A DNA stretch of 64,000 bases from Chthoniobacterales bacterium (GCA_013821455.1 JACDGS010000013.1:16904-80903), one strand, 5' to 3'; positions 5,234 to 64,000 are shown, numbered from the stretch's first letter. The notes: a model not told the origin generated them from the sequence alone. Made by a program: numbers and translations.

Positions 5234-6196
5234 GTGATGAATCCTTCTGCTCACGAGCGCGACGAAGCTTGGCCCGAGTTACCCTTCGCGTCTTGGAAAG
5301 ACACAGCCGAGACGCTGCATATGTGGACGCAGATTATCGGAAAGATCCGGCTCAAACTTTCCCCTTGGATCAATCACTCCTGGCACGTCACTCTTTACCT
5401 GACCGCGCGCGGCCTAACGACTTCGCCGATACCGCATGGGTGGCAGACGTTTGAGCTACGCTTCGATTTCATCGATCACCATTTGCGCATTCTCAAAAGC
5501 GACGGTCGCCAGCACTTGGTCAAGCTGCGCGCGCAATCGGTCGCCGATTTCTATCGCGAAGTGATGGCCGGTCTCGAGGATTTGCAGTTGCCCGTGAAGA
5601 TCGATCTTATGCCTAACGAGATCGCGAATCCGATTCGCTTCGATCTCGACGAATTGCATCGCTCCTACGACCCGGAAGCGGCGCATCGTTTCTGGCGCAT
5701 TCTCCTCCAATCGGATCGCGTCTTCAAAAAGTTTCGCGCGCGCTTTTGCGGGAAGTGCAGTCCGGTGCATTTCTTCTGGGGCAGCTTCGATCTCGCCGTG
5801 ACACGTTTCTCCGGTCGCCCTGCTCCGTCGCATCCCGGCGGCGTTCCGCATCTGCCGCTCGCGGTCGCGCGCGAGGCTTATGCGCAGGAAGTGAGCAGTC
5901 TTGGTTTCTGGCCCGGGAATGCTGACCTTCCCACGCCACTCTATTATTCCTATGCCTACCCGGAACCGGCCGGCTTCGCGCAGGCCGCGGCTTCGCCTAA
6001 CGAGTCTAACTATTCGCCGCAACTGCACGAGTTCACCCTCGCCTACGATGCCGTCCGCACTGCGCGGTCGCCGGACGACCTGTTGCTGGAGTTCGCCCAG
6101 AGCACTTACGACGCCGCGTCGCGTCTCGGGAAATGGGATCGCGCCGCGCTCGACGAGAGCAAGCTCAACCCGCCGAGCCGTGAGGACGCCGCCTAA
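5234..6196 (+). CDS. conserved hypothetical protein, DUF5996-like (family call from memory)
   Basis: 320-aa ORF with clean coding-like composition. The N-terminal block WKDTAETLHMWTQIIGKIRLKLSPWINHSWHVTLYLTARGLTTSPIP resembles the DUF5996 family as I recall it. The stop TAA lies inside a GCCTAACGA motif. Confidence 0.55.
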   Translation: MMNPSAHERDEAWPELPFASWKDTAETLHMWTQIIGKIRLKLSPWINHSWHVTLYLTARGLTTSPIPHGWQTFELRFDFIDHHLRILKSDGRQHLVKLRAQSVADFYREVMAGLEDLQLPVKIDLMPNEIANPIRFDLDELHRSYDPEAAHRFWRILLQSDRVFKKFRARFCGKCSPVHFFWGSFDLAVTRFSGRPAPSHPGGVPHLPLAVAREAYAQEVSSLGFWPGNADLPTPLYYSYAYPEPAGFAQAAASPNESNYSPQLHEFTLAYDAVRTARSPDDLLLEFAQSTYDAASRLGKWDRAALDESKLNPPSREDAA

Positions 6197-6217
6197 CGAG
6201 TAAAGGACTCGCCGGCG

Positions 6218-6487
6218 TTAGTATTCGGCGATCGCGTCGTCGGGATAACAGTAGAGCCAGCGCTCGCCCGGCTGCGCGGAAGCGATGACCGGATGATCGA
6301 CGGCGCGCGCGTGCTTGCTGGCGTGGCGATGCGGCGATGAGTCACAGCACAAAGTAAGTCCACATGTCTGGCAGGTGCGCAAATGAACCCACGATGCGCC
6401 GATCTTGACGCATTCCGCGCACTCCTGTCTCTGCGGACGTTTGATCGTTTCGACCGTCTCGATGTGCGCGCAGGGTTCATTCTTCAT
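6218..6487 (-). CDS. UBP-type zinc-finger domain protein
   Basis: 89-aa ORF rich in Cys/His: CAHIE, CAECV, HLRTCQTCGLTLCCDSSPHRHASKHARAVDHPV. This matches the zf-UBP pattern. Confidence 0.65.
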   Translation of the reverse strand: MKNEPCAHIETVETIKRPQRQECAECVKIGASWVHLRTCQTCGLTLCCDSSPHRHASKHARAVDHPVIASAQPGERWLYCYPDDAIAEY

Positions 6488-6584
6488 CCATGAGCCTATC
6501 GCGCGAACTTGGGGACGAACAATCGCTCTCGGCGAAAGGCGTTTTCCCGGGAGTCACGCCACCATTGAATTTTAAGTTCGGTGA

Positions 6585-7307
6585 TTGCGTCAAAATGCCG
6601 GTGGACGCCTTCCGACGCCCGCTTTACATCTTCTTCCCTGCCGACGCCCGATGCCACGCCGACCCAAGCTCCCTAACGATCCCGACTTCGAGGAATCCGG
6701 TCCACGCCTGCCGGCCGTGAGCCCCCCCTTGGAGCCGGGGCAACCAACCGACCTGGAGCTGATGGCTGGAATCCAGCGCGAAGATCCGGACGCGCTCTCC
6801 CAGCTTTACGATCGCTACAACGGCATCATCAAAGCGCTCATCCTCCGCGTCGTGCATAACGAAGCAGAGGCAGACGACTTGCTACAGGAGATCTTCATGG
6901 AGCTCTGGAATCAGGCAAAAAACTTCTCGGCGCAAAAAGGAAAACCGTTAGGCTGGATGGTAACCCTGGCGCGGCGGCGGGCGATCGACGGCTTGCGCAA
7001 AAAGCAGGCCTACATGCGCGCGGGCGAGCGGTTGCAAAACGAAACCGAACAGCAACCAGATGCCTGGGTGCACAACGCGACCGAGGAGGAAATTAATTTT
7101 TCCGATACGCGCCTCCTCGTGCGCAAAGTGATCAACGGCCTGCCGCCCGCGCAACAACAGGCTATCGACCTCGCATTTTTTCGCGGGATGAGTCAGCGCG
7201 AAATCGCCGCAAATACGAATACACCTTTAGGGACGGTCAAGACGCGCCTCGAATTGGGGCTAAAAAAAATCTACGACGGTCTGAAAGAACTGAGAGATGA
7301 GCTTTGA
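6585..7307 (+). CDS. ECF-type RNA polymerase sigma-70 family factor
   Basis: Region 2 (DDLLQEIFMELWNQAKNF, GWMVTLARRRAIDGLRKK) and region 4 HTH (LPPAQQQAIDLAFFRGMSQREIAANTNTPLGTVKTRLELGLKKI). Start uncertain: TTG 6585 versus ATG 6651. Confidence 0.85.
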   Translation: MRQNAGGRLPTPALHLLPCRRPMPRRPKLPNDPDFEESGPRLPAVSPPLEPGQPTDLELMAGIQREDPDALSQLYDRYNGIIKALILRVVHNEAEADDLLQEIFMELWNQAKNFSAQKGKPLGWMVTLARRRAIDGLRKKQAYMRAGERLQNETEQQPDAWVHNATEEEINFSDTRLLVRKVINGLPPAQQQAIDLAFFRGMSQREIAANTNTPLGTVKTRLELGLKKIYDGLKELRDEL

Positions 7308-7542
7308 AGAATTCCAGAACCGCGCCCGGCTCTACGTCATCGGCGCGCTGGAAGACGGCGAGAATCTCGACTTCGAAGAAGCGCGCGCAGAGTTCGGACA
7401 GAAGGCGGAAGATTTCATTACTGAATGCTATCAACTGCACGAGGCCTTCGCACTCAGCCTGCGTCCGGCAAAGGCTTCCGACGCGCTGAAAGAGCGCCTG
7501 ATGAAAATGGTGCGCGAACGCAAGCCGGACACCGCTCGTTAG
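7297..7542 (+). CDS. small soluble anti-sigma-factor-like protein (no TM segment)
   Basis: 81-aa ORF overlapping the sigma gene stop by 11 nt. N-terminus RLYVIGALEDGE...FEE resembles RskA-type anti-sigma N-domains. The stop TAG lies inside a TCGTTAGGC motif. Confidence 0.4.
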   Translation: MSFEEFQNRARLYVIGALEDGENLDFEEARAEFGQKAEDFITECYQLHEAFALSLRPAKASDALKERLMKMVRERKPDTAR

Positions 7543-7575
7543 GCAAAACCTCCGAGGTCGCGCCCGCATCGCCGG

Positions 7576-8121
7576 TTACTCGTTAGGCGGAGTCGATTCG
7601 TTAGGCGACGCCGGCTGGGTGCTACATTCCATTTCCCGCAGAATAAACTCCTGGAGAAAGCCGTAGAAGTTCACCTGGAACAAACCGAGATCGCGCCGCG
7701 AACCGATCGGCGAGCGATAATGATCGGATAACTCCTCCTCGGTGAAACTGAACTCCGCCGCGAGCGCCAGCCGGGCGCGATTGAGCGCATTCAGCCAGGC
7801 CTCGGAGTTCCCCAGCGGAATGCGCAGCGCACAATTCGCGAAAGGCTTTTCGTTACCGTTGAGCTGCCGCAAGTCGCCCTGCACGGTTTCAGTCGCCGTC
7901 TCGAAAATACGGCGCAGCTCCGGCTCGACATAGAGCTTCCATTCCGCGCAAATTTCCTTCTCGGTCTCCGGATTCGCCGGCGAACTAAAAAGCCGGCGCT
8001 CAGCCGCGGGAATCGCGCGCGGGTTGCCGCTCTCGGGAATCTGGCGCAACAACTCGGCCAGAAACGGATCGATCTCTTTGATCTCCAGCGTGCCGTTGTT
8101 GCGCGAGACTTCCATCGTCAT
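7576..8121 (-). CDS. hypothetical protein translationally coupled to clpS (possibly DUF2017-like)
   Basis: The ORF track gives 7576..8205. The ATG at 8121..8119 (MTMEVSRNNG) overlaps the clpS stop TGA (8120..8118) as ATGA, so I take that as the start. No motif recognised with confidence. Confidence 0.5.
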   Translation of the reverse strand: MTMEVSRNNGTLEIKEIDPFLAELLRQIPESGNPRAIPAAERRLFSSPANPETEKEICAEWKLYVEPELRRIFETATETVQGDLRQLNGNEKPFANCALRIPLGNSEAWLNALNRARLALAAEFSFTEEELSDHYRSPIGSRRDLGLFQVNFYGFLQEFILREMECSTQPASPNESTPPNE

Positions 8122-11666: not shown

Positions 11667-11750
11667 GACGTCAGTCGGCGATCCAGTCACCAAAACAAGA
11701 AACGCCGCGTGAGAACGAATCTCACGCGGCGCCTTGTTTTCCTGAATTCG

Positions 11751-12536
11751 TTAGGCGAGACCGAGCGTGACTAAGGTCGGCTCGTCCACCGCCGCGGTCT
11801 CGACCAGCCCGTTATCCCGCTGAAAAGCGGCGAGCGCATCTCGCGTCTGCGGCCCAATCAAACCGTCGATCGGCCCTTGATAGTAACCCTGATCGCGCAG
11901 CGCCAGTTGCACGTTTTCCAAGACCTGACCGGGAGCCAGGTTGTTATAACCGTAGATTGGTTCGCTGTAGGCGTAGTTATTGTAAAAGGGGCTGTAGCCA
12001 AACGCCGGATACCAGTAACCGCTATCCCAGTAATAATAACCTCCGCCGAAAAGCACGAAGGTGGTGTTGTAATGACTCCTCCACCAACCGCGATCGTGAT
12101 AGGTCCGAATGACGCGGCTTCTTGCGACGGAGTAACTATTGCGATTGAAGTTTCTTGAAGCGCGATTCAAACCCGCAGATTGCCTCGACACATTCGTAGT
12201 CCGAGCGTTTGTCACCGGGCGGCCGCGATCTCCGTTTCGATTCAGACTATTCGCGGTGCCACGATTCGGATAGGCCCGATTATTGTAAGTCTGGCCGGTG
12301 CTCGCATAGCTACGCTGCGGGCTAACATAGCTACGGCTTGGAGTTATCCCACGCAGCGCTGGCTGACCCACCTGACCGACTGGTCGCCGGACCGTTTGTC
12401 CCGGCACCGCGGCCGTCGCCGCTTGGTGGCTGCGTTTCTTTTTATTGTTCCTGTCGTTCTCGTTGTCGTTATCTGCACGCACCACTTGCGCCAGGGACAA
12501 GCTGAGAGCGAGCGCTAAGAGAATTAGTTTCTTCAT
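11751..12536 (-). CDS. secreted protein with C-terminal peptidoglycan-binding (PG_binding_1-like) domain
   Basis: Signal peptide starts at MKKLILLALALSLSLAQ (ATG 12536; the track start 12572 is upstream). N/R/Y-rich middle region. C-terminus LRDQGYYQGPIDGLIGPQTRDALAAFQRDNGL. The stop TAA lies inside the 9-mer motif. Confidence 0.7.
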   Translation of the reverse strand: MKKLILLALALSLSLAQVVRADNDNENDRNNKKKRSHQAATAAVPGQTVRRPVGQVGQPALRGITPSRSYVSPQRSYASTGQTYNNRAYPNRGTANSLNRNGDRGRPVTNARTTNVSRQSAGLNRASRNFNRNSYSVARSRVIRTYHDRGWWRSHYNTTFVLFGGGYYYWDSGYWYPAFGYSPFYNNYAYSEPIYGYNNLAPGQVLENVQLALRDQGYYQGPIDGLIGPQTRDALAAFQRDNGLVETAAVDEPTLVTLGLA

Positions 12537-12612: not shown

Positions 12613-13059
12613 TCAACCCTCCTGCTGCCGCACCGCTTCGAAGAGCACGATGGCGACCGCCGTGGCGAGATTAAGGCTGCGCGTGCCATGCATCGGAATC
12701 GTGAGGGTGCGATCCGGATGCGCACGGAGCAGGCTTTCCGGAAGTCCTTTTGTCTCCCGCCCGAAAACCAGAAAATCTCCAGGCTGAAACTGCGCCCGAT
12801 GATAAGGGCGCACTGCTTTAGTCGTTAGGTAGAAGTAACGCGCTGCGGGACTTTGCGCCTGGAGTTCGCCTAACGAATTCCACATGCGAAGCTCGACTTC
12901 GCACCAGTAATCCAAACCGGCGCGTTTCAAGGTGCGATCGTCCAGCGCGAAACCAAGCGGGCCGACAAGATGCAATGTCGCCCGCGTCGCAAGACACAGC
13001 CGCCCGATGTTCCCGGTATTCGGCGGAATCTCCGGCTCAACGAGAACGATGTTAAACAC
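12613..13059 (-). CDS. trmL: tRNA (cytidine/uridine-2'-O)-methyltransferase TrmL (SpoU family)
   Basis: 148 aa. MFNIVLVEPEIPPNTGNIGRLCLATRATLHLVGPLGF and the C-terminal IPM...RSLNLATAVAIVLFEA knot motif. Confidence 0.85.
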   Translation of the reverse strand: MFNIVLVEPEIPPNTGNIGRLCLATRATLHLVGPLGFALDDRTLKRAGLDYWCEVELRMWNSLGELQAQSPAARYFYLTTKAVRPYHRAQFQPGDFLVFGRETKGLPESLLRAHPDRTLTIPMHGTRSLNLATAVAIVLFEAVRQQEG

Positions 13060-15147: not shown

Positions 15148-15978
15148 ATGTCACACGCCGCGACCGAACTGATCATCGAAGCCGGACACACCGAGCGGAA
15201 TTACTGGCGCGATCTTTTTCGCTATCGCGAGCTGTTCTATTTTCTAGCCTGGCGCGATGTGCTCGTGCGCTACAAGCAAACCGTCATCGGCATTCTCTGG
15301 GCTGTCCTACGGCCGTTGCTGACAATGATCGTTTTCACCTTCGTTTTCAGCCGCATCGCCAAGTTACCCGCCGACGGCATCCCCTACCCGGTAATGGTTT
15401 TCGGCGCAATGCTGCCGTGGCAACTTTTTGCCCAGTCGCTAAGCGAAGGCAGCGGCAGCCTGATCAACAACGCCAACCTCATTTCGAAAGTTTACTTCCC
15501 GCGACTTATCGTGCCGGCGAGCGCGGTCATAGTCTCCTTTGTCGATTTCGCGATCTCGATGGTCCTGTTAGCCGTTATCATGGCGATCTATCGCGTATGG
15601 GTCGGCGTTCCTATTTTGATGCTGCCAGTCTTTACCCTGCTCGCGTTGCTCGCCTCGGCCGGCGCAGGTATTTGGCTCGCTGCCTTGAATGTGAAATACC
15701 GCGACTTCCGCTACGTCGTACCTTTCATTGTCCAGTTCGGCTTCTTCGTTTCGCCGGTCGGTTTCAGCAGCGCGCTCGTGCCGGAGAAATGGCGCTTGCT
15801 CTACGACTTCAATCCCATGGTAGGTGTCATCGACGGCTTCCGCTGGTCGGTCTCCAACGGCCGTAGCGCCTTCCCGCAGCAAAGCCTTCTTCTCTCACTT
15901 ATCACCATCGTTATCCTGCTCGTCAGCGGCATCTGGTATTTCCGAAAAACGGAACGCACCTTCGCCGATGTGATCTAG
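15148..15978 (+). CDS. ABC-2 type polysaccharide/O-antigen export permease (Wzm/TagG-like)
   Basis: 276 aa with six TM segments. N-terminal YRELFYFLAWRDVLVRYKQTVIGILWAVLRPLLTM is typical of ABC-2 exporters. No partner ATPase is adjacent. Confidence 0.85.
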   Translation: MSHAATELIIEAGHTERNYWRDLFRYRELFYFLAWRDVLVRYKQTVIGILWAVLRPLLTMIVFTFVFSRIAKLPADGIPYPVMVFGAMLPWQLFAQSLSEGSGSLINNANLISKVYFPRLIVPASAVIVSFVDFAISMVLLAVIMAIYRVWVGVPILMLPVFTLLALLASAGAGIWLAALNVKYRDFRYVVPFIVQFGFFVSPVGFSSALVPEKWRLLYDFNPMVGVIDGFRWSVSNGRSAFPQQSLLLSLITIVILLVSGIWYFRKTERTFADVI

Positions 15979-16026
15979 CGATCGCGTGCGCGCGGCGTTC
16001 GTGACCAAGCTTCCTATTGCCGAGTC

Positions 16027-17019
16027 ATGACTGCTCCTGCACCATATCTTTCCTTTTGTATCCCAACGCGCAATCGTGCGTCCTACCTCCGCGTCCTCCT
16101 GGAAAGCATTGCAGAGCAAAGCACACCGGAGATAGAAGTCGTTATTTCCGACGATGCTTCGACCGACGAGACACAAGAGCTAGTCGAGAGTTATCGCACG
16201 CGCCTGCCACAACTTACTTATGAACGCTCGGATCCAGCGCTGCGCTACGACCGCAACTTACTTCATGTCGTTGACCTCGCGCGCGGCGAGTACTGCTGGC
16301 TCTTCGGCGATGACGACCGCCTCGAACCGGGCGCGCTGGCCGAAGTTTTGCAGACCCTGCGTTCCGTGCCCGACTTAACCGGCCTAACGACTAATAGAAT
16401 TTCCTTTGATAGTAACCTGGAGTCTCGCCTACCCGTGCGCGACCTGAAACAAAGGACAAGCGCTCTTTACCACGACGCCAACGAAGTCTTTCTCAGCCTG
16501 CTTGATCGACTTGGCTTTCTTTCCTGTCAGATCGTCAACCGGACGCTTTGGAAAGATATCGTTAACCACGAAAACCTTGAGCCCTACTTCACTGGTTATG
16601 TCCAACTCTACGTCATCGCCCGCATGCTCGTGAAAAAGCCGCGCTGGCAATTCCTGGCCGAACCCTGTGTCGCCTTCCGCGCCGACAACGATTCCTTCCG
16701 CGCCCTCGGACAGTTAGGCCGTTTGCAAATGGATGTCTGCGGCTACGAAAAAACCATCGGTGATGTCTTTGGCCGCGACACCACTCTCTATCACGAAGCA
16801 ATGGCTGAAATCTCGCGCACCCATGCGCGGCATCACATCGTCACGGCAAAGCGCGCCGGCGCTCCATTCTCCTTTTTCCGAGACGCGCTCGCGCTCTGCG
16901 TTAAACACTATGGCCGATACGCAACCTTTTGGTTGCACACCTTCCCGGTCCTTCTCATGCCGCGCTCAGTCATGTTAATGCTGCGCAGTGGCTATCAACG
17001 TCTGCGCGGCCACGGATGA
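16027..17019 (+). CDS. glycosyltransferase family 2
   Basis: LSFCIPTRNRASYLRVLLESIAEQSTPEIEVVISDDASTDET and the downstream GDDD motif. Confidence 0.85.
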   Translation: MTAPAPYLSFCIPTRNRASYLRVLLESIAEQSTPEIEVVISDDASTDETQELVESYRTRLPQLTYERSDPALRYDRNLLHVVDLARGEYCWLFGDDDRLEPGALAEVLQTLRSVPDLTGLTTNRISFDSNLESRLPVRDLKQRTSALYHDANEVFLSLLDRLGFLSCQIVNRTLWKDIVNHENLEPYFTGYVQLYVIARMLVKKPRWQFLAEPCVAFRADNDSFRALGQLGRLQMDVCGYEKTIGDVFGRDTTLYHEAMAEISRTHARHHIVTAKRAGAPFSFFRDALALCVKHYGRYATFWLHTFPVLLMPRSVMLMLRSGYQRLRGHG

Positions 17020-17819: not shown

Positions 17820-17820
17820 T

Positions 17821-20163: not shown

Positions 20164-20165
20164 CA

Positions 20166-22449: not shown

Positions 22450-22486
22450 TGTTTTCAATGCGTAACTCGAGACTTACCTACCCGGA

Positions 22487-34966: not shown

Positions 34967-34975
34967 AAAGAAGGG

Positions 34976-50900: not shown

Positions 50901-53900
50901 CACGCAAGCGGGCAACGGTATCGGCTTCGAGCCCTTCACAGATACCAACGGCAACGGCATCCATGATGCCGGCGAGCCTTTCACTGATCTTAATGGAAAT
51001 GGCGTCTGGGATGGCAGCATAGCTACCACCTGGGTGCAAGCGACCGAAGTCACTCCGACCCCGACGATAGTGAGTAACTATCCGCGCGAATGGCGCTTCA
51101 ATTATAGCAACATCCCGAGTGGTTCAACGGCGGCACATATCTCTGTAAGGTTACGCGAACTTTCTTCCGCGGCTTACAAGGACTTCTCCATGACCGATAG
51201 CGCAGGTCATTACACCACGCTCGTGCGCAATATCACTGCCAACGGCCCGGTGCAGAAAATGTTCGTCGCCTTTCCGCCGACCGACGGCACGCTCGTCGAT
51301 AACACCTATGTCATGAAGGTCTGGTTCAGCAAATCGCTGGCCGATAACACCAGCACTTCCGACCTCATCAATCGTTTCCTGATTAAGATCGCGAGCAGTG
51401 AGTCAGGTTCGCCCGCGAACGGCGTCGCACAAAGCCGCACGGGTTATACGATTAACTACAACGTCACCTCTGATTATGACGAACTGGCCTACACGCTCCC
51501 GAATCTCTATAACGATCAACCTGATTTCCTGCACACCATTGATGTGACTTACACGCCGCCGCCGGGCGGCGCACCGCTGGAAGCGTTCCGGTTGGTGAAA
51601 GCGAAAGCGGTCCCCGTTATCCAGGACATCATCGCTACTCCGCCGGAAGTGGACTCGGACGGTCTGCCTTACATCATCACTCTCCCCGATGTCGCCAATC
51701 CTACGCCCGCGCAGCGTTCTATTCCTATCCAAGTCCAGACCGACACGACCGCGACTAATGTTACCCTGACCTTTACCATCGGCAGCGGCACGACCGCGCT
51801 CAATACCGGCAGTCCTACCATCGTGGGTAACACGAAGTTCTGGGATTTCACCTGGAGTAGTGTCGCCGCGGGTAACTATACCTTTGTCTCTACCGTGACC
51901 ACGCCTGCGGGCACAGCAACGGCGTCGCGCGACGCGACCGTTGTCTTCCGGCAAATGGTCGCCGCCAACCCAGCCAAACATGACGTGGACGACGACGGCC
52001 TTGGCGTTTACGGCACGGCCCTGACTCCGATAGAGACGACAGCCATCCCACTCCCGACAACTAACTCAGAGACATGGGTCAATGGCGACGTCCACCTTTG
52101 GGCTATCTCTGGAAAAACAAACCCACTTAGCCCAGATACGGATGGCGACATTGTTTCCGATGGGTTGGAGTTAGGCTGGGCGAGTGCGGTGGATGACACC
52201 AATACTGCTACCGACACAAACGGTGATGGAGTGAAGAACTTCCAGCCCGACCTGGATCCTCCTGTTTATAACACGACCGACAATAGCTCCGCGCCCACCG
52301 GCTATAACTATTACTCACCGTGGCCTTACAACCTGAATAACTCACGCACCGATCAGATCGCCGGCTCGGTGACCGATCCTAACAAAGCGGATACGGAAGG
52401 TGATGCACTCAACGACGGTGTCGAGGATGTGACTTACCAAGTCAGCGGCGGCTCGATTCCCTATTTACCCATACATAATGGCCGCGTCGATATCGGCGTG
52501 CCCGATATTAACAATGTCCTGCACGTCATCGCGCATCCGCCGACGGTTTATAACACCTCCAAGGTCGATCGCGCGAAAGTGCTATCCGTTTCACCTACTG
52601 CGGTCTGGCTGGAAACCGATCCTAACAATGCCGATACCGACGGTGACAATATCATCGACGGTAACGAAGACCTGAACCACAACGGCATCGTCGATCTCGC
52701 GGTGATCGATCGTAACAAGACCGATACCAGCGGTAACTATGTCGTCCTCGCGACCTTCAGCGACTTTAAGCAAAGTGTCACTGTTACCGGCTCGGTCACT
52801 GGCTCAACCGCACAGACATTTAAGTATTCCGACTTCTGCTCTACCTATGTCGAGCCGACTAATAGTCAGACTTACACTTCCACCGCGCTCGATAAGACAA
52901 AGCTCAACGCCTTCTTCCGACCCAGTGGGGCGATCCGTGCAGATAAGCTGGATATTATCTGGCTCGAGACCGACCCACGCCGCTATAGCACTTCGGGCGA
53001 CGCCCTCCCCGACGGTTGGAAGCTGCAACATAACCTCGATCCTTTCGATGATGGTGTTATCGGTGACTACAATCTCCACACGGGCAAAGCGATCACGACT
53101 ACGACCAATGGCGCGAATGGCGATCCGGACGGCGATGGCCTAACGAATCTGCAGGAGTTCCTCAACGGCTCCGACCCGCAACAGGCCGGCACCCCGCCGC
53201 CGCCGCCGCCGGGCGCGATCACCATCGGTCCCGGCGCGACTACAACCTTCGGTGCCGCCGTGAACAAGCATGAGTTCACCGATTGGGGCGCGAACGATCT
53301 TATTGCGCTCGATCCTTACGATGGCGATGGCACTAACTATAACCAAGGTGACGTTTATCACGGCGGCGACGGTTTCGATTCATCGCGCGATATGGTCGCC
53401 TTCTACGCACACGATGGCGGCGCGATCGCAGGCGGCGGCGACGGCAATTTCTATTTCCGCGTCGATATGGAGGACCTGCAAGCCTATGCCGAGCAGGGAA
53501 ACCTCGACATCTACGTCGCGATCAATCTCGGTAACCCAGGCACCGGTGAGTATAACCTCCCCGACCAGGTCGATACCGGCACGTCGTTAGGCTGGCAGGT
53601 CGTGGTCGCGTCTTATCAGACAGATACCGGCAACGTCTATGTCTGGGATAAGAACCACGCGACTCATTCCACTGCAATAGGTCAGGATCTGACTCAGTTC
53701 GGTGTGACGACACGCAACCAGAATACGGCCAACGGATTTAAAAAGGCTTACTATAACTCCGACCTCGATTCGGTGGAATTTTCCATCAGCCGCCAAGCCT
53801 TGCTCGACGCGGGATGGAGTGGCGATCCTACCACCCTCCTATATCAGGTCTTTACCACCCGCGATGGCACGCAGGATAGCCCGCAAGGCGCGGGCGACAT

Positions 53901-56568
53901 CGGCGGGCGTTCCGATATTCGCGACTCCATCCGCAATGACGGGATCGCTTCCGATTACTACCTCGATCAGCCTAACATTATCGGCGCTAACAGCGTCCTT
54001 CGTTCCTACATCGGCCTAAGCGGGGATAATGATCGCGGCAAGAAAGTGAAGGTCGTTAGTCTGATTCATAGCAACCAGGCCATCCAGCCCGGCAGCACCA
54101 TGCAATCATTTATCAATAATAGCGCGAGCGGGGGCTACTATCGCGCCCTTGATGCGCACCAGGCCTTTGAGGTGCCGCTCACTCTGCACGTGACACCGAC
54201 CTTCGCCGCCGCGGTGCAATGGGCTAAGTCCGCCAGCCTCGGCGCGGATGACGGACCAGCCTTTAATACCCGCATCGGTAATCTTATTGGCAGCGGCACC
54301 ATCGACTTACTCGGCAGCACTTTCTCGGATCATCTTTTGGGTTACTACGACACGGCTTATAACAGTGACAACATTAGTCTCGCGCGCGATTTCCTCACTA
54401 GCTACTACGGGCACCTGCCCTCGCCCAATATCCTCTGGACGCCGGAACGCGCTTCCAGCTCGGCCATTCTGCAAAAGGTCGCTGACGCCGGATACACTTA
54501 TACCTTTGTCGATCAAATGCGGCATATCACGAAGTGGTTTGGCCGTACTTCCGCTCTGGGCGACGATGGTTATAGGATTAATGAGATCAACTCTACGAAT
54601 GCCTTTGTCATCAATGACAGCGCGAGCAGTTATCTCTTCCAGAGTTACGATAACGGCTCACCTATCCTCTCGCGCCAGCTCCTAAGTCGCATCGCGCGCA
54701 GTTCCACGCACGACCAGGTCGTCATTTTCATGAACGATTGGGAGAACTTCACCAACGTCACGAACGCGACGAACTACGATAAGAACATGCGCTGGCTCAG
54801 CAGCCGTCCCTGGATCGAGATGGTCACTCCCGATCAGATCGTTAACGGCACAATCGATACCGACGTGCCGCCCGACGGCACCGGCAATCAATGGGGCGTG
54901 GTCGATCGCGGGATTAACCTTACTTTGGCTAACGTCGCCAAAGACTATGTCGATCACGCTACGGAGGAGAACTACGATAATTGGTACAACGGCAGCAGCC
55001 TGGAAGAATCTCTCCGGGATAAGAAATTCAACATCCGCACGGGAGTCGCGCTGACTACGACTTATGGGACTGAGGGCGTGTCCGGCATCGCTAACTCTGC
55101 CTGGCAATCCGTCGCCGGCCTGGCCTCACTTCCCTCAACCATAGGTCTCAACACCTTGGCGCGTGCTACTCTGCATGCTTCGGCTTTTGAGACCGCCTTC
55201 CACGACGAGACCAGTAACGATCTGAGTAAGTATAGCACCGGCGCTTATATCTATCCGGATACCACTTTCCAGAACCTTGCTGGGTTCTCGAAAGCTGCAC
55301 AATCCAACACTCGCGAAGCTGCTATCTACGCCCGGGTGAACACTTGGTCGCAGGCGGCGACGAATGGGAGTTACAATAGCGCGGCGGTGTCGGAGCAGGC
55401 CGACCTCGATCTCGATGGTGAGAATGAGTATCTTCTTTATAACGACCGCTTCTTCGCCCTCTTCGAACGTCTCGGCGGTCGTATGACTGCGGCGTGGTTG
55501 CGCGACATTAATAGCGGCTATGTCACACAGGTGGCCGGCAACCTCGCGGGTAACAGTGGCTCTGAGACGGAAGAAGAAGGAACCACTAACACCAGCGGCG
55601 GCGCGGTCGTCGCCTATCGCACTTCCTGCTTTAAGGATTGGTATGCCAAGGTGACCAGTACGTCTACGACCGGCGTCTCTTATGCTAACAATCTTTATAG
55701 CGTGGTCGCCGCGCCTTCCGGTATTGGTTGGAAATTCACCAGCTCTGACGGGAAAGTGGTTAAGACGATTACGTTACCCACTGGTAAAGGACAGCTCAGC
55801 GCCAGTTACATACTGAGCGGCTACGCACAGTTGTATGTCCGCTTCGGGCTTTCGCCCGATCTGCTCGATTTGATGCAGGATGGCCAGAAATATCTCAGCA
55901 GCCTAACGAGCGATACGCAGGACGTGAACCTGTTCAATACGAACCCGAACCGGACCGTCCGCGCCTATCTCCGCTTTAACGCCACCGGCTTTAGCGGCGC
56001 GACTTTTAACTCCACCGCGACCGACCGCGATTCCGACGCCACCTATGACACGGTCGTCATGCGCAATCAGGCGCAAACCCAGCAGGTCGAAATGTTCGGC
56101 GGCACGAACATGACCTTCGGCCTCGGTTTCGAAACAGGCTCGACTTTGAGTTACGATAGCGATCACGACGGGTTACCGAACGCATGGGAAACGCAATACG
56201 GCCTCGACCCGAACGACGCCACCGGCAACAACGGCGCCAATGGCGATCAGGACGGCGATGGCCGCACTAACCTCCAGGAATACATCCTCGGGACTAACCC
56301 GACGGTGGCGGACTCCGCCCTCGCGAAACTAACGATAACTCGCACCTCGCCGACGACGGTGACGCTGAGTTTCCCCTCCGTGCGCGATCGCATTTACAAG
56401 ATCTCCTACACCTCCAGCCTAACGAACACAACCTGGGCTCAGGCCGGCGCGAACATTGCCGGCACTGGGAGCACCTTCACTTATACCGACGACGGCAGCG
56501 GCACCGGCTCTCCACCGACGACCGCGACGCCGCGCTTTTACAAACTCGATGTCAGCCTGGCCCCATAA
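47938..56568 (+). CDS. giant secreted multidomain glycoside hydrolase: N-terminal GH13 alpha-amylase domain, Ca-binding TSP3-like repeats, GH57-like domain, C-terminal beta-sandwich module
   Basis: 2876 aa with a signal peptide. GH13 regions I-IV: YLDNVMNHN, GLRLDAVKHV, MFGEHLGE, MHAQSHDN. Many D.D.DG..D..E repeats. Around residues 2050-2230, LIHSNQAIQ, PLTLHVTPTFAAAVQW and ILWTPERASS resemble GH57 motifs (less certain). Confidence 0.85.
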   Translation: MKSLAVRTLFFAALTAVTLAPASAPGEAMIQYFNTDWNEIAQKMPELAEAGYDSIWLPPPAKGSGGLSVGYDLFDRFDLGSKDQRGSISTRYGTESDLLRLIEVAHRFGIRIYLDNVMNHNAFDVPGYNASTPIDLYPGFVPEDFHLKLTQDGFYRKWDNIRDYNDVWQVQHLGLADLIDIAQEPGTTNENFGATEGSTFPKIKFVRQPNNPEYYCYKPDGTYVGFGTNNGLTTAILAANPGYYSEYVQDFLNRAARWEMDRTKADGLRLDAVKHVRSDFFGAVGNGKDYNDYGYLGQAQRQFNITRGFNDSRFNSTAQGSQVNLRESLFDTEKPRHNAMMFGEHLGEPPPYNDYFNVGMRLVDNVLRNNMNGILGNPSATLGGLDVDGGYGFASSLAVMHAQSHDNDYYVDRDLQHGLYLTRAGIGLIYTDGNHQAQTLGQSGGAFPRHANTNYLGQYSDPKIPNLLYIHNQFARGTQVGRYSDADFVAYERLDKRENTSMTDADGTTLLYLMNDNSAAGQGRTFNTAFAHTAGGSDTYLYNYSTYGAGFYTYASSIANGSVIVPPGGYFAFSWRNPEQSNLWSLGGGKPITILQAGLPTSTLTYLRVDGPDGDPNFNPYGVTGAVPGSYSYPYTIPRITNGSDLSFIARADGSAQSILLELDGGIDLNGTAPANNADPVGKRDYPPGLSTDVFLGYELPTYIDREGPEKFAAINTVRCTFGSAGAETYTGGGATVNGNGTNPQDSAAATFVYHDPNATISGWTGAPPGNQYVDNGSTLRVYAKTNAVGSGFRMFFYFTSDGTNPEGAGGVGIGTTKTAEMTFQANTTDGNDWWANPAISRPAGTIKYKIAIYKAAQPSQFPDSATSVGRKVNMLTTFQTAHFNATTATVFPHDDFAATQTGLSEGFHVLRARAFLNRAGRASIYNTFTQSFYYDAQAPQGEIAFPHEGDTIGGSGYGVVVRTDPSVTEVWYHIDDADTTNDDVNTHTQAGNGIGFEPFTDTNGNGIHDAGEPFTDLNGNGVWDGSIATTWVQATEVTPTPTIVSNYPREWRFNYSNIPSGSTAAHISVRLRELSSAAYKDFSMTDSAGHYTTLVRNITANGPVQKMFVAFPPTDGTLVDNTYVMKVWFSKSLADNTSTSDLINRFLIKIASSESGSPANGVAQSRTGYTINYNVTSDYDELAYTLPNLYNDQPDFLHTIDVTYTPPPGGAPLEAFRLVKAKAVPVIQDIIATPPEVDSDGLPYIITLPDVANPTPAQRSIPIQVQTDTTATNVTLTFTIGSGTTALNTGSPTIVGNTKFWDFTWSSVAAGNYTFVSTVTTPAGTATASRDATVVFRQMVAANPAKHDVDDDGLGVYGTALTPIETTAIPLPTTNSETWVNGDVHLWAISGKTNPLSPDTDGDIVSDGLELGWASAVDDTNTATDTNGDGVKNFQPDLDPPVYNTTDNSSAPTGYNYYSPWPYNLNNSRTDQIAGSVTDPNKADTEGDALNDGVEDVTYQVSGGSIPYLPIHNGRVDIGVPDINNVLHVIAHPPTVYNTSKVDRAKVLSVSPTAVWLETDPNNADTDGDNIIDGNEDLNHNGIVDLAVIDRNKTDTSGNYVVLATFSDFKQSVTVTGSVTGSTAQTFKYSDFCSTYVEPTNSQTYTSTALDKTKLNAFFRPSGAIRADKLDIIWLETDPRRYSTSGDALPDGWKLQHNLDPFDDGVIGDYNLHTGKAITTTTNGANGDPDGDGLTNLQEFLNGSDPQQAGTPPPPPPGAITIGPGATTTFGAAVNKHEFTDWGANDLIALDPYDGDGTNYNQGDVYHGGDGFDSSRDMVAFYAHDGGAIAGGGDGNFYFRVDMEDLQAYAEQGNLDIYVAINLGNPGTGEYNLPDQVDTGTSLGWQVVVASYQTDTGNVYVWDKNHATHSTAIGQDLTQFGVTTRNQNTANGFKKAYYNSDLDSVEFSISRQALLDAGWSGDPTTLLYQVFTTRDGTQDSPQGAGDIGGRSDIRDSIRNDGIASDYYLDQPNIIGANSVLRSYIGLSGDNDRGKKVKVVSLIHSNQAIQPGSTMQSFINNSASGGYYRALDAHQAFEVPLTLHVTPTFAAAVQWAKSASLGADDGPAFNTRIGNLIGSGTIDLLGSTFSDHLLGYYDTAYNSDNISLARDFLTSYYGHLPSPNILWTPERASSSAILQKVADAGYTYTFVDQMRHITKWFGRTSALGDDGYRINEINSTNAFVINDSASSYLFQSYDNGSPILSRQLLSRIARSSTHDQVVIFMNDWENFTNVTNATNYDKNMRWLSSRPWIEMVTPDQIVNGTIDTDVPPDGTGNQWGVVDRGINLTLANVAKDYVDHATEENYDNWYNGSSLEESLRDKKFNIRTGVALTTTYGTEGVSGIANSAWQSVAGLASLPSTIGLNTLARATLHASAFETAFHDETSNDLSKYSTGAYIYPDTTFQNLAGFSKAAQSNTREAAIYARVNTWSQAATNGSYNSAAVSEQADLDLDGENEYLLYNDRFFALFERLGGRMTAAWLRDINSGYVTQVAGNLAGNSGSETEEEGTTNTSGGAVVAYRTSCFKDWYAKVTSTSTTGVSYANNLYSVVAAPSGIGWKFTSSDGKVVKTITLPTGKGQLSASYILSGYAQLYVRFGLSPDLLDLMQDGQKYLSSLTSDTQDVNLFNTNPNRTVRAYLRFNATGFSGATFNSTATDRDSDATYDTVVMRNQAQTQQVEMFGGTNMTFGLGFETGSTLSYDSDHDGLPNAWETQYGLDPNDATGNNGANGDQDGDGRTNLQEYILGTNPTVADSALAKLTITRTSPTTVTLSFPSVRDRIYKISYTSSLTNTTWAQAGANIAGTGSTFTYTDDGSGTGSPPTTATPRFYKLDVSLAP

Positions 56569-60055: not shown

Positions 60056-61972
60056 TTGCCCGCGACGAAGCTTTCCGACAAAGTGAATGCCGGAATCCCT
60101 ATGCTGAAAACACTCTCCCTCGCCGCCTTCCTCACGCTTCTACTGCCCGCTGCTTTTGCTGAGTCACCCAAGTCTTTCCCGGAAGACCAGGGCGTCACGC
60201 TCGAGCAACTGCAACCTGCTCCCGCCTGGGCGTCGGAGGCAGTCTTCTACCAAATCTTCCCTACTCGCTTTCGTAACGGCGACCCCAAGAACGATCCTAC
60301 ACGCGACACTCTCGAGATACCGATCAAAGCACCTAACGACTGGCATACTTCCTCCTGGACCGCGGATTGGTATGCGCGCGATGACTGGGAGAAGGAAATG
60401 GGACCCGACTTCTATGATAGCGTTTTCGATCGACGCTACGGCGGAGACCTGCAGGGGGTGCTCGATAAGCTCGACTACTTGAGCGATCTCGGGATTAACT
60501 GCATCTACTTCAATCCTATCTTTTACTCTCGCTCGCTCCACAAATACGACGGTAACTCCTACCACCATATCGACCCGAATTTCGGTCCCGATCCTAAGGG
60601 CGACCTCGCGCTCATCGAGAAGGAAACGGCTGATCCTTCTACCTGGAAGTGGACCGCGGCAGACAAGCTCTTCCTTAAGCTGATCAAGGAAGCGCATAGC
60701 CGCAAAATCCGGGTCATCATCGACGGCGTCTTCAATCACACCGGGCGCGATTTCTTTGCCTTCCAAAACCTGCGCAAGAACCAGGCGAAATCGCCTTATA
60801 AGGACTGGTATGTGGTCAGTAGCTTCGACAATCCGGCGACGAAGCGGAATGAGTTCAATTACAAAGGCTGGTGGGGTCATGCGACGCTGCCCGTTTTCGC
60901 CGCCTCGGCCGATGGCAAGGATATGTTTGCCGGGCCTAAGAACTACATCATGCAGGCGACGAAACGCTGGATGCTGCCGGATGGGAAAGATCCGTCGTTA
61001 GGCATCGATGGCTGGCGGCTCGACGTCGCGGATGAGCGGCCGGCGAAATTCTGGGCGGATTGGAACGCTTTTGTGCGCAAATGCAATCCCGAGGCCTACA
61101 CCACAGCGGAGATCTGGCACGATGCCGCCGCGCTGGTGAAGGATGGGGGCTTCTCCGCGGCGATGAATTACAACGCCTTTACCATCCCGGTGAAAGGCTT
61201 TCTTATCGATGACAACATCGGTCCATCGAAATTTGTCAGCCTAACGAATGAAAGACGGGAAAGTTTTCCCGCTCCTGTCGCCTATGTCATGCAGAACCTG
61301 ATGGGCTCCCACGATACCGACCGCCTCGCCTCCATGATCGTGAACGGTGAAGGCACGCCATACGTTAACGGCCAGATTTCCTTTAACGACAACGCGGACG
61401 CGCATTCCTCGAAGACCTACAAAATCCGCAAGCCTAACGACCGTGAGCACGAAATTCAGCGGCTGGTCGTGCTCTTCCAGATGACCTACGTCGGCGCACC
61501 GATGATTTATTACGGCGATGAGGCCGGCATGTGGGGCGGCCATGATCCCGACGATCGCATGCCGATGGTGTGGGCGGATTTGAAATACGATCCCCAGGCG
61601 ATCGATCCGCGCGGGGACGAGCGCGAGGCGGATGATGTAAATTTTAATCGGGAGGTTTTCGATTACTACAAAAGCGCGGTGGCTTTGCGGCGCGAGCACG
61701 ATGCGCTCAACCATGGCGACTACAGCGTCGTCTTCCAGGATAACGATCACGATTCACTCGCGTTCGTTAGGCGCAGCGACAAGGAGAAGCTGCTCGTGGC
61801 ATTCAATCGGAGCAGTGAAGCTGCGACGCTGGGGATGAATTTTCCGCATCGTAAGGCCAAGCCGATCTTCGTCACCAAGGGTGATTTGTCGGGCGTGCAG
61901 GCGGACGATTCGGGCAATGCACTTGATCTGAAATTGCCTCCTCTAACAGGCGTGGTTCTCTCTTTCGAGTAA
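60056..61972 (+). CDS. GH13 alpha-amylase-family enzyme (neopullulanase/cyclomaltodextrinase-like), secreted
   Basis: VFYQIFPTRFRNGDPKND, GGDLQGVLDKLDYLSDLGINCIYFNPIF, IDGVFNHTG, GWRLDVADE, AEIWH, GSHDTDR. The likely start is ATG 60101 (MLKTLSLAAFLTLLLPAAFA). Confidence 0.9.
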   Translation: MPATKLSDKVNAGIPMLKTLSLAAFLTLLLPAAFAESPKSFPEDQGVTLEQLQPAPAWASEAVFYQIFPTRFRNGDPKNDPTRDTLEIPIKAPNDWHTSSWTADWYARDDWEKEMGPDFYDSVFDRRYGGDLQGVLDKLDYLSDLGINCIYFNPIFYSRSLHKYDGNSYHHIDPNFGPDPKGDLALIEKETADPSTWKWTAADKLFLKLIKEAHSRKIRVIIDGVFNHTGRDFFAFQNLRKNQAKSPYKDWYVVSSFDNPATKRNEFNYKGWWGHATLPVFAASADGKDMFAGPKNYIMQATKRWMLPDGKDPSLGIDGWRLDVADERPAKFWADWNAFVRKCNPEAYTTAEIWHDAAALVKDGGFSAAMNYNAFTIPVKGFLIDDNIGPSKFVSLTNERRESFPAPVAYVMQNLMGSHDTDRLASMIVNGEGTPYVNGQISFNDNADAHSSKTYKIRKPNDREHEIQRLVVLFQMTYVGAPMIYYGDEAGMWGGHDPDDRMPMVWADLKYDPQAIDPRGDEREADDVNFNREVFDYYKSAVALRREHDALNHGDYSVVFQDNDHDSLAFVRRSDKEKLLVAFNRSSEAATLGMNFPHRKAKPIFVTKGDLSGVQADDSGNALDLKLPPLTGVVLSFE

Positions 61973-62236: not shown

Positions 62237-62821
62237 ATGCGTATTTTCCTGGCAGCTCTTCTTGGCGGAATCGCCATGTTTATTTGGTCGTCCATCGCAC
62301 ACATGGCTTTGCCGCTCGGCGAAGCGGGCATGCGCGATGTGCCTAACGAATCCCTCCTGACATCGCTCCAAACCCAAATCGGCTCCGAAGCAGGTCTCTA
62401 TCTCCTCCCCGGGTTCGGGCTGGGACCAAATCCTACGAGCGCGCAGAAGCACGAAGCGATGAAGCACTACGAAGAACGCGCACAGCGTTATCCATCCGGA
62501 CTGCTGATGTATTTCCCCGGCGGCGGCCGCCCGATGGCGATGGGCAAATGGCTCTCCGTTGAGTTCGCCACCGAATTTTTCGAAACCCTTCTCGTCGTTT
62601 TTCTTCTTAGCCTCACCCGCCTTTTCACCTTCGGAGCGCGCGTCGGATTTTTCCTGGTCGCCGGCATCCTTGCCGCCATCGCGACCAACATTTCCTACTG
62701 GAATTGGTATGGGTTCCCCACGACTTACACCGCCGCCTACATGTTCACGCAACTCGTCGGATTCCTCTGCGCGGGATTGGTCGCAGCGCTGGTCTTAAAA
62801 AAATGGCGTCCGGCTGTTTGA
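62237..62821 (+). CDS. hypothetical integral membrane protein
   Basis: 194-aa ORF with four hydrophobic segments. No motif recognised. Confidence 0.55.
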   Translation: MRIFLAALLGGIAMFIWSSIAHMALPLGEAGMRDVPNESLLTSLQTQIGSEAGLYLLPGFGLGPNPTSAQKHEAMKHYEERAQRYPSGLLMYFPGGGRPMAMGKWLSVEFATEFFETLLVVFLLSLTRLFTFGARVGFFLVAGILAAIATNISYWNWYGFPTTYTAAYMFTQLVGFLCAGLVAALVLKKWRPAV

Positions 62822-62828
62822 GGATTCG

Positions 62829-63758
62829 TTAGGCAGCCTCGTGGCGTTTCGTCTTCAGGGCATAAAGGACGAAACAAATCCCGCCCACGATTAGCAGGAC
62901 CGAAAGCGTTTGGCCGCGCGTGAACGGACCGGTAAGAGGCGCGTCTGGCTCGCGAAAATTTTCCACCACGATTCGGACGAGCGCGTAGAGGAGCAGGAAA
63001 ATCCCCGCGAGCATTCCGCGCGGCGGCCTGGTCCAAACGCGCAGCAGCCAGAGACAGGTAAAGAGGAAAAGGCCCTCGAGAAGCGCTTCGTAAATCTGCG
63101 ATGGATGGCGCGGCGTCAGCGTTTGCTGCAGGACGTGCTGCAGCGCGACGTCACCCGTCCGCGCCTGTTCAATTACGCTCTCGATATTTCCGACGTCGGG
63201 TTTTACCGCGACGGCGGCGGCGAGCGTGCGGGCACCCAGATCCGGAAGATCGAGTGCTTCCTTCGGAAATTGCATCGCCCATGGGATCGTGGCAGCGCGG
63301 CCGTAGAGTTCGCCGTTGATGAAATTAGCGCACCGCCCGAGGAACAAACCAACGGGTGCGACGACCGCGATGTTATCGGCCAGGCCGACCCACGAAATGC
63401 GCTGAGCCCGCGCGTAGAAAAATGTCGCGAGCGTGAGACCAATCATTCCGCCGTGGCTCGACATCCCGCCATCCCAAACTCGTAAGATGGAGAGCGGATC
63501 GCCTAACGTGTGTTGGAACCGGTAAAAAAAGACAAAGCCCATTCTCCCGCCTGCGACCACGCCTAACGACGCCACACAAATGTAATCGCCGACCTTCGTG
63601 GCCGGCAGCTCGCAGGAGCGACGCTGCGCGAGCCAGCGCAGGAGAAGAAACCCGCAGAAAAACGCGAGGAGATAAGAAAACCCATACCAGCGAATCCCAA
63701 AATTCGAACCGAGCTTGACCAAAAAGGGACTGAAATTATCGAGGTAATAGGCGATCAA
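62829..63758 (-). CDS. lgt: prolipoprotein diacylglyceryl transferase
   Basis: 309 aa. IRWYGFSYLLAFFCGFLLL, GGMSSHGGMIG, GRCANFINGELYGR and HPSQIYEALLEG are Lgt signatures. Confidence 0.85.
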   Translation of the reverse strand: MIAYYLDNFSPFLVKLGSNFGIRWYGFSYLLAFFCGFLLLRWLAQRRSCELPATKVGDYICVASLGVVAGGRMGFVFFYRFQHTLGDPLSILRVWDGGMSSHGGMIGLTLATFFYARAQRISWVGLADNIAVVAPVGLFLGRCANFINGELYGRAATIPWAMQFPKEALDLPDLGARTLAAAVAVKPDVGNIESVIEQARTGDVALQHVLQQTLTPRHPSQIYEALLEGLFLFTCLWLLRVWTRPPRGMLAGIFLLLYALVRIVVENFREPDAPLTGPFTRGQTLSVLLIVGGICFVLYALKTKRHEAA

Positions 63759-63784
63759 GCCCTCAACCTAAAGAGAGACGAGCG

Positions 63785-64000
63785 ATGCGGAGAAGAAAAA
63801 TTTATCGGTCCGGCACGCGCCTGTTTCTCTGCTGCGTTCTCCTCGGCGCTTCGCCGGCACGCGCCGCGCACCTCAATCCTGAGGCGGTGCGGGCCGCGGC
63901 CTCGTATTCCGCGGCGCATAAAGGGACTTCTTTTCTCGTTAGGCAAAATGGGAAGACCCTGCTCGAGGAATATTCCAACGGCGGTGGCGAAGACGTAGCG
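63785..64000 (+). CDS. partial ORF (N-terminus only), possibly serine hydrolase/beta-lactamase family
   Basis: My translation from ATG 63785: MRRRKIYRSGTRLFLCCVLLGASPARAAHLNPEAVRAAASYSAAHKGTSFLVRQNGKTLLEEYSNGGGEDVA. That is a signal peptide plus an N-terminal pattern common in class-C-like serine hydrolases. Runs off the window. Confidence 0.4.
   Translation, partial: MRRRKIYRSGTRLFLCCVLLGASPARAAHLNPEAVRAAASYSAAHKGTSFLVRQNGKTLLEEYSNGGGEDVA

Follow-up and report, generated by a model that had tools for sequence, protein, structure and literature searches.

What process fills a bacterial chromosome with exact copies of a single nine-nucleotide word, inside genes and between them and in either orientation? 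The question is raised by a 64-kb stretch of the genome of an uncultured member of the Chthoniobacterales (Verrucomicrobiota), referred to as a whole as the window, in which the word GCCTAACGA (complement TCGTTAGGC; hereafter word A) occurs 48 times. We consider it an even call that word A serves throughout the genome as a recognition word of the DNA uptake sequence (DUS) type, spread by biased uptake and recombination, a proposal built on patterns in the sequence. That uptake bias and recombination drive its spread is the step that we infer, by analogy with DUS and with the uptake signal sequence (USS) systems.

Abundance and placement of word A in the window

The 48 exact copies, 26 on the plus and 22 on the minus strand, amount to a density of ~0.75 per kb over both orientations. 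A mean of 0.55 copies and a maximum of 3 were obtained in 100 dinucleotide-preserving shuffles of the window, and 0.7-0.8 copies are expected under Markov models of order 3-4 whose training sequence had the copies masked. Word A is the top 9-mer of the window by a wide margin; runners-up that are not fragments of it reach at most 18 copies and are GC-rich low-complexity words. Its 7-nt core, CCTAACG, is found 68 times, that is 20 times beyond the exact copies. As plus and minus copies are interspersed along the 64 kb, the word is without strand polarity within the window. A preliminary description of this DNA had given 47 copies (25 and 22), a near-exact count that overlooked the copy at 5611. 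Its chance expectation of ~0.5 per 64 kb, its "about 20" additional core sites, its hot spot (37.8-42.6 kb, 15 copies) and its lack of orientation bias were all reproduced, and a Markov comparison of the kind that it proposed for the whole genome predicts, at order 3-4, less than one copy in the window against the 48 observed.

The copies are listed below with their strand and position relative to open reading frames (ORFs), the assignment to reading frames resting on a rough gene map of the window.

5412..5420, plus: DUF5996 gene (5234-6196, plus), sense, G-L-T-T
5611..5619, plus: DUF5996 gene, sense, M-P-N-E
5995..6003, plus: DUF5996 gene, sense, S-P-N-E
6191..6199, plus: supplies the TAA stop of the DUF5996 gene; 17-mer subfamily GCCTAACGAGTAAAGGA
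7536..7544, minus: complement supplies the TAG stop of ORF 7297-7542 (plus)
7580..7588, minus: end of the DUF2017 gene (7576-8205, minus), P-P-N-E, stop codon directly after
7598..7606, minus: DUF2017 gene, sense, S-P-N-E
11748..11756, minus: supplies the TAA stop of a peptidoglycan-binding-domain gene (11751-12572, minus)
12868..12876, plus: antisense in a SpoU methylase gene (12613-13059, minus), S-L-G
16382..16390, plus: GT2 glycosyltransferase gene, sense, G-L-T-T
20424..20432, minus: antisense in a methyltransferase gene (20099-21028, plus), L-V-R-R
21187..21195, minus: antisense in ORF 20977-22449 (plus), S-L-G
28488..28496, plus: methyltransferase gene (27980-28600, plus), sense, S-L-T-T
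30436..30444, plus: ORF 30036-31700 (plus), sense, G-L-T-N
34792..34800, plus: intergenic, between ORF 34575-34790 and tRNA-Trp (34809-34883)
37858..37866, minus: antisense in an EamA transporter gene (37446-38417, plus), V-V-R-Q
38613..40529, minus: the hot-spot gene, vWA/YfbK family, 638 amino acids, nine copies; on plus at 38721, 38925, 39197, 39222, 39356 and 39929 (antisense, S-L-G or L/I-V-R), on minus at 39733, 39835 and 39895 (sense, P-N-E/D)
40560..40568, plus: intergenic, between the vWA gene and an ECF sigma-factor gene
40927..40935, minus: ECF sigma-factor gene (40680-41246, minus), sense, L-P-N-E
41203..41211, minus: ECF sigma-factor gene, sense, L-P-N-D
42497..42545: perfect 17-nt inverted pair TCCTTTACTCGTTAGGC / GCCTAACGAGTAAAGGA with a 15-nt loop, word copies at 42505 (minus) and 42529 (plus)
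45128..45136, minus: intergenic, ~50 nt downstream of a Kelch gene (43887-45077); 17-mer subfamily
46385..46393, minus: supplies the TAA stop of ORF 46388-46783 (minus); 17-mer subfamily
46926..46934, plus: antisense in ORF 46773-47042 (minus), S-L-G
47418..47426, minus: doubtful small ORF 47365-47604 (minus), possibly intergenic
47938..56568, plus: glycoside-hydrolase-like gene, 2876 amino acids, six copies; on plus at 48629, 53138, 55901 and 56417 (sense, G/S-L-T), on minus at 49690 and 53584 (antisense, S-L-G)
60056..61972, plus: alpha-amylase-family gene, four copies in four different frame/orientation combinations; 60995 (minus), 61239 (plus), 61432 (plus), 61764 (minus)
62341..62349, plus: ORF 62237-62821 (plus), sense, V-P-N-E
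62826..62834, minus: supplies the TAA stop of lgt (62829-63758, minus)
63561..63569, plus: antisense in lgt, S-L-G
63936..63944, minus: ORF 63755-64000 (minus), sense, L-P-N-E

Thirty-eight of the 48 copies (~79 %) lie inside ORFs, five contribute a stop codon and five fall between genes; ten are at or just past gene ends. The copies inside ORFs use all four frames that avoid the internal TAA/TAG of the word, encoding P-N-E/D (12 copies) or G/S-L-T (10) in sense and S-L-G (10) or V-R (6) in antisense, which agrees with the earlier claim that the word is found both between genes and within them in several frames. The six stop codons previously attributed to the word are exact at 6196, 7542, 11751, 46388 and 62829, while at 7576 the TAA directly follows it. 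When 119 copies from ten genomes were pooled, no flanking position exceeded 0.2 bit and the flanks were near-unconstrained, with weak tendencies (≤ 0.2 bit) towards T at -2, a pyrimidine at -1 and a base other than T at +1. Word A is thus a bare 9-mer without conserved flanks.

The inverted pair at 42497..42545, which the preliminary description had placed downstream of a gene, is a perfect inverted repeat 40 nt downstream of a Kelch gene (42038-42457); its hairpin (-37 kcal/mol, z = -4.2) is terminator-like but has no clear U-run. The 17-mer GCCTAACGAGTAAAGGA of which it is composed has five copies in the window (6191, 42505, 42529, 45128 and 46385), found only at the 3′ ends of genes, four of them at 42-46.4 kb among Kelch/FG-GAP genes. 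This extension is specific to the genome and is not present in related genomes. A larger element containing the 17-mer was considered and rejected, as the common sequence ends at 17 nt.

Word A in related genomes and word B in a sister clade

We utilized the vWA protein to fetch 80 loci and Lgt to fetch soil-metagenome loci; labels of the form L plus a number denote the genomic, metagenome or viral loci compared in this analysis. The closest species-representative genomes are Chthoniobacterales metagenome-assembled genomes (MAGs) whose vWA protein is ~80-83 % identical in its best aligned segment. Among the 80 vWA loci, word A is the top or near-top 9-mer in nine from Chthoniobacterales, at 0.3-1.4 per kb, and is absent from four other Chthoniobacterales loci and ~65 loci of other phyla. 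Pooling of the window with 14 related Chthoniobacterales loci (clade A, 215 kb) gave 139 copies versus 1.6 expected, an 88-fold enrichment. Control loci from other phyla (1.06 Mb) contain 2 copies versus 2.2 expected, so the expectation model is calibrated. The enrichment recurs in independent data, as the MAGs and metagenome contigs that show it come from several projects.

Alignment of vWA orthologues allowed the history of individual copies to be followed. Two of the nine sites are common to 5-6 species, three to 2-3 species and four are restricted to the window; the word is therefore identical across species with its positions only partly shared, as the preliminary description had proposed to check. 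Orthologues that lack the word differ from it by 3-8 nt at these sites with no indels. The residue changes that create it include PPKD to PPND, IA(T/Q)D to MPNE, SLD to SLG and LVQQ to LVRQ, and one codon change replaces ATT CGG with GTT AGG. Coding sequence has been rewritten to create word A, and this has occurred at the level of DNA, not of a peptide or a repeat element. An origin as the footprint of a 9-bp in-frame insertion was rejected, since the orthologues are gap-free at the word sites. The vWA frame is interrupted in L002, L036 and L056 (ORFs of 205-389 amino acids versus ~640), probably through assembly frameshifts and not because the genes are pseudogenes.

Across 15 species pairs (~78 % nucleotide identity) 39 % of aligned copies were intact in both genomes compared with 15 % of background 9-mers; copies of word A are maintained beyond the background rate, by a factor of 2.5. 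Variants of the word with a single mismatch (one-offs) number 123 in the 215-kb pool versus 45 expected. They are enriched 5-9-fold at positions 1, 2, 8 and 9 and 3-fold at position 5, where nearly all are A to G, with zero enrichment at positions 3, 4, 6 and 7. As one-offs are not enriched at the latter positions, this spectrum, a genomic proxy for recognition, implies that the core, C-T-·-A-C, is strict and that the edges are tolerant.

Word A was found in only a few of the Lgt-fetched soil-metagenome contigs. A large sister clade carries, at up to 1.2 per kb, word B (AAGATCGACA / AGATCGACA, extended consensus cAAGATCGACAwc), identified in Chthoniobacterales-like soil metagenome and MAG loci including L128, L133, L111, L135, L136, L137, L140, L156 and L007. 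Word B is likewise dispersed in both orientations with unconserved flanks. Its copies fall in all six frames, most often (88 of 156) in V-D-L, a cheap one. Its core, A-T-C-·-A, is strict, and 61 % of its copies are intact between species versus 15 % of background 9-mers. Although asymmetric as a whole, it contains the palindromic tetramers GATC and TCGA. The strand ratio is 8:9 and 7:8 in two loci; across loci 40 of 114 copies are on the plus strand, which fits V-D-L being the cheapest frame, as genes in those loci are mostly on the plus strand. In a systematic scan of 104 loci of ≥ 8 kb only words A and B exceeded the noise floor of 5-6 copies. Their enrichment by group is as follows.

Clade A (215 kb): word A 88-fold, word B 1-fold
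B-high (156 kb): word A 6-fold (2 versus 0.3), word B 47-fold
B-dual, L110, L113, L142 and L150 (64 kb): word A 94-fold, word B 35-fold
B-low (319 kb): word A 12-fold, word B 10-fold
Other phyla (1.06 Mb): word A 1-fold, word B 1-fold

In the B-dual genomes the two words are interspersed, word A at 0.2-0.3 and word B at 0.5-0.7 per kb, and further two-word loci are present in the B-low set (L098, L120, L127 and L118 among them). Exact copies of word A occupy homologous sites across word-B sub-lineages; the copy at L113:3783, for example, is intact in eight loci. We considered that word A might be a decaying relic in the word-B genomes and rejected this, since exact copies are 6-94-fold enriched there and one-offs are not, which indicates that word A is maintained in these genomes.

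Scans of viral contigs from IMG/VR identified none with host-like dispersed word A, and close-pair scans yielded chance-level pairs or tandem arrays only. Among these, L197 (IMGVR_UViG_3300010366_000067) has four copies within 220 bp (3683-3910), and L164 and L180 contain tandem arrays with a 17-nt period that include the word.

Other frequent 9-mers of the fetched loci were set aside as repetitive extragenic palindrome (REP)-like hairpin pairs, tandem heptamers, longer repeats or one-strand coding repeats. L020, a Pirellulales MAG, has seven REP-like hairpin pairs GGGTGGCACTGACAAGC-N-GCTTGTCAGTG in 16 kb (for example at 1567-1640, 2268-2300, 4472-4560 and 13022-13130), unlike word A. An element resembling a REP or a miniature inverted-repeat transposable element (MITE), with inverted GTCATCCCGAGCG..CGAGGGA ends ~75 nt apart, was seen in L097, L101, L114, L143, L145 and L092 and is frequent in one Chthoniobacterales lineage with neither word A nor word B. 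Tandem heptamer arrays (AGGGTTC, GAGTGGC, AATGACG, CAACGCT) form inverted blocks ~50-100 nt apart at L015 2562-2675, L014 83-180, L106 3320-3450 and L110 6762-6790 and 11921-12030. Genuine REP-like words such as those of L020, L097 and L145 look quite unlike word A, for which a REP/MITE dispersed repeat was rejected given the lack of flank conservation and the ~79 % of copies in ORFs.

Candidate mechanisms and known systems compared

Were word A an uptake word, cells of this Chthoniobacterales clade would preferentially bind or import DNA fragments that bear it, and the imported fragments would replace homologous chromosomal DNA by recombination. Mutations that improve the match would then be over-transmitted (molecular drive), so that the word might build up to ~1 copy per kb where coding constraint permits, in weakly conserved codons, at gene ends and in intergenic DNA, and would be kept intact once present. 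Recognition would be strict for the core C-T-·-A-C (positions 3, 4, 6 and 7), with the outer bases contributing less. The sister clade would use the unrelated word B in the same manner, and some genomes would maintain both.

Biased uptake followed by homologous recombination is the mechanism accepted for DUS and USS, and by analogy appears the most economical here. The DUS of Neisseriaceae, GCCGTCTGAA and its dialects, are received by the minor pilin ComP and occupy ~1 % of the genome; a CTG core is strictly required while the outer bases are graded, and the dialects differ by 1-3 bases around this common core, two of them being carried by Simonsiella muelleri (PMC3630211). DUS number 1,892 in N. 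meningitidis (34.5 % in ORFs) and USS 1,471 in H. influenzae (65 % in ORFs), and Findlay & Redfield reported that these signals reshape the Haemophilus and Neisseria proteomes and sit at poorly conserved positions (PMC2817400). USS are of two types, AAGTGCGGT (Hin-type) and ACAAGCGGT (Apl-type), distributed over two subclades of the Pasteurellaceae (PMC2817400; PMC1626085).

Word A resembles DUS in being short, non-palindromic and of similar abundance, and in occurring in both orientations within and between genes. One inverted pair of it lies downstream of a gene, a place where DUS frequently form pairs that act as transcription terminators. Word A is likewise identical across related species, with lineage-specific words and two-word genomes, and one-offs in the genomes suggest that its short core is strict and its outer positions graded. 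As with USS, it is a 9-mer of similar abundance located mostly in ORFs, where several frames are used with a bias to cheap codons and the encoded tripeptides are enriched, and two word types mark two subclades. With both it shares a placement in weakly constrained positions and the residue and codon changes seen in orthologues. The differences are also plain. Words A and B are not homologues of the Neisseriaceae DUS or the Pasteurellaceae USS, their sequences being unrelated to GCCGTCTGAA, AAGTGCGGT and ACAAGCGGT and the host a member of the Verrucomicrobiota, not of the Proteobacteria. Many more copies of word A than of the meningococcal DUS are in ORFs (~79 % versus 34.5 %), and words A and B lack the kinship seen among the DUS dialects, which all have CTG, and between the two USS types, whose sequences are related. 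USS have an extended AT-rich flanking consensus and are comparatively evenly spaced in H. influenzae, whereas the flanks of word A carry almost no information and its copies are clumped. The interpretation as a DUS/USS-like signal made in the preliminary description is consequently upheld in part, by density, orientations, frames, flanks, conservation, rewriting and core, and fits less well with the clumping and the unrelated word B; most hallmarks of DUS and USS that can be read from sequence are present.

A number of observations weigh against uptake. The clumping is marked, with a variance-to-mean ratio of 3.0 in 4-kb bins that only 2 of 10,000 random placements matched. There is a single terminator-like inverted pair in 64 kb, unlike DUS, and no competence genes (ComEC, ComEA, DprA), type IV pilus or ComP-like receptor are encoded within the window. 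The literature on Verrucomicrobia, Chthoniobacter and Udaeobacter yielded no report of uptake sequences or of competence in Chthoniobacterales. Word A is patchy on the Lgt tree, falling in at least two separated lineages, although a single gene is too weak to order events. Words A and B show no sequence relation and no evident common core, and the jump from one to the other together with their coexistence suits a swappable, methyltransferase-like specificity module at least as well. ComEC-dependent DNA uptake does exist in the Planctomycetes-Verrucomicrobia-Chlamydiae superphylum, in Chlamydia (PMC6686042). The preliminary description knew of no such signal in a PEP-CTERM/exosortase, Verrucomicrobia-like organism, and we found no uptake-type word in Verrucomicrobia in the literature, where two motif surveys omit the phylum; the sequence of word A itself was met with only in primers and oligonucleotides.

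An intracellular origin is unlikely in our judgement, yet it is the main rival and a serious one. Word A would then be a hyper-abundant word comparable to the cyanobacterial palindrome HIP1 (GCGATCGC), written or maintained within the cell, for example by a methyltransferase with short-patch repair or nicking, or serving some other function as for HIP1, and its specificity would be an exchangeable module. The ~90-fold enrichment falls within the range of 15-300-fold given for HIP1, which is also said to be under selection (PMC5861425), and word A is conserved beyond background; presence in genes, conservation beyond expectation, lineage-specific variants and an unproven function are further traits of HIP1 (PMC5861425; PMC4390886). 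Unrelated words that coexist and are patchy on the Lgt tree are what mobile specificity determinants would be expected to produce, and word B holds the palindromes GATC and TCGA. Word A in contrast is asymmetric with no palindromic subsite, whereas HIP words are tied to palindromic methyltransferase sites (GATC/CGATCG; PMC4390886). The viral scans lend nothing to an intracellular process, no IMG/VR contig having a host-like dispersed density, although this is weak evidence. In E. coli the very-short-patch repair performed by Vsr corrects one specific mismatch, and repair of this type fails to explain convergence at nine positions from 3-8 mismatches. We know of no HIP1-like writing mechanism demonstrated for any asymmetric word, which also counts against this explanation. 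Less probable again is that each copy is selected as a binding site of an abundant chromosomal protein with sequence specificity, such as one associated with the nucleoid, with condensin loading or with segregation. High density, independence of orientation and conservation beyond background would suit it, as would a strict core with tolerant edges, which a protein-DNA interface can produce. However a genome of 5-7 Mb would contain several thousand such sites, and exact copies exceed all one-offs combined (139 versus 123, 45 by chance) where selected binding sites are normally degenerate. The changes to proteins that accommodate the word are costly, and any one site would bring little benefit in return. 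The spacing is clumped, not regular, the sister clade has an unrelated word and some genomes have two.

Two further explanations are effectively excluded by observation. We attach very little probability to a polar signal guiding RecBCD/AddAB or FtsK, in the manner of Chi or of the FtsK-orienting polar sequences (KOPS) and architecture-imparting sequences (AIMS), even though these are likewise short, non-palindromic, lineage-specific and over-represented. Such signals are co-oriented with replication and modestly enriched, Chi of E. coli being < 10-fold enriched and ~75 % co-oriented. Word A is nonpolar (26 plus and 22 minus, interspersed) with an enrichment of ~90-fold, far above Chi, and word B is balanced at 8:9 and 7:8, its 40 of 114 copies on the plus strand fitting the cheap V-D-L frame in mostly plus-strand genes. 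Still more improbable is that word A is no signal and results from codon bias, a protein motif, a dispersed repeat element or an error of assembly. The common 17-mer GCCTAACGAGTAAAGGA of five copies at gene ends might point to a repeat, but those copies are alike over 17 nt only and the other 43 have unrelated flanks. A different peptide results from each of the four frames, less than one copy is predicted by Markov models (up to order 4, copies masked), and the enrichment extends to MAGs and contigs of several independent projects; the scan of 104 loci moreover found only words A and B above the noise floor.

Genomic surroundings of the word and significance

The genes of the window are ordinary chromosomal genes, and the density of word A varies among them. 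Further features are as follows.

15148..33331: surface-polysaccharide/exosortase cluster, a word-poor stretch with low GC content at third codon positions (GC3, 0.51-0.63); contains ABC-2 transporter, GT2, GT9, methyltransferases, DUF3485 and EpsH
33468..36160, minus: highly conserved L11, NusG and EF-Tu genes, with zero copies of word A inside coding sequences

The part of the polysaccharide cluster at 16-31.7 kb has five copies, a density of 0.32 per kb, and that outside this part is 0.89 per kb; the cluster is atypical by composition (low GC3), with word A approximately three times sparser. Uptake words are also marked by depletion in recently acquired DNA, which the lower density would suit if the cluster were of foreign origin. 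Rfam and tRNA scans of the window identified two tRNAs and nothing else, so word A is not part of a known RNA.

Two paralogous PEP-CTERM proteins (with VPEPAT/IPEPATG before a basic tail at the C terminus) and the exosortase EpsH/DUF3485 pair, at 2461-3852 and 31645-33331, flank the polysaccharide cluster. The guess of a Verrucomicrobia-like organism with a PEP-CTERM/exosortase system, made earlier from the sequence, is borne out by these genes and by the Chthoniobacterales relatives. Imperfect inverted repeats are located between tRNA-Trp and tuf (34891-34972, 34-nt arms) and just downstream of the alpha-amylase gene (61991-62135, 62-nt arms, 77 % complementary). The word GGCGGCGAA has eight copies in the window, seven of them on the minus strand whatever the strand of the gene; in Lgt loci (L087, L098, L107, L119, L120 and L127) nearly all are on the plus strand, where most genes also lie. 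It could be a polar word of the Chi/KOPS kind or a codon effect, as in the Lgt loci its strand bias cannot be told apart from gene orientation.

To our knowledge sequence-specific DNA uptake is known from two proteobacterial families only, and how uptake specificity originates and changes is an open question in the field. The two unrelated words GCCTAACGA and AAGATCGACA of the Chthoniobacterales may, with a likelihood that we place midway, represent sequence-specific uptake, the first outside the Proteobacteria; failing this they would point to an equally new writing process. We would class the finding as a hyper-abundant word of the uptake type that is new for its phylum, where sister lineages carry unrelated words, and that has a putative role in uptake. 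If the cause is not uptake, word A would be a new asymmetric counterpart, at ~1 word per kb, of the unexplained HIP1 phenomenon. If it is uptake, unrelated words that mark lineages and coexist would imply wholesale replacement or duplication of receptor specificity and not the small drift of dialects; the Chthoniobacterales would provide a third and phylogenetically remote case, and the two-word genomes a natural experiment on specificity switching. Recombination within lineages would then be frequent in these abundant uncultured soil bacteria, and addition of the word to donor DNA would offer a practical route to their genetic manipulation. Words A and B are already usable as a lineage barcode by which soil metagenome contigs can be assigned.

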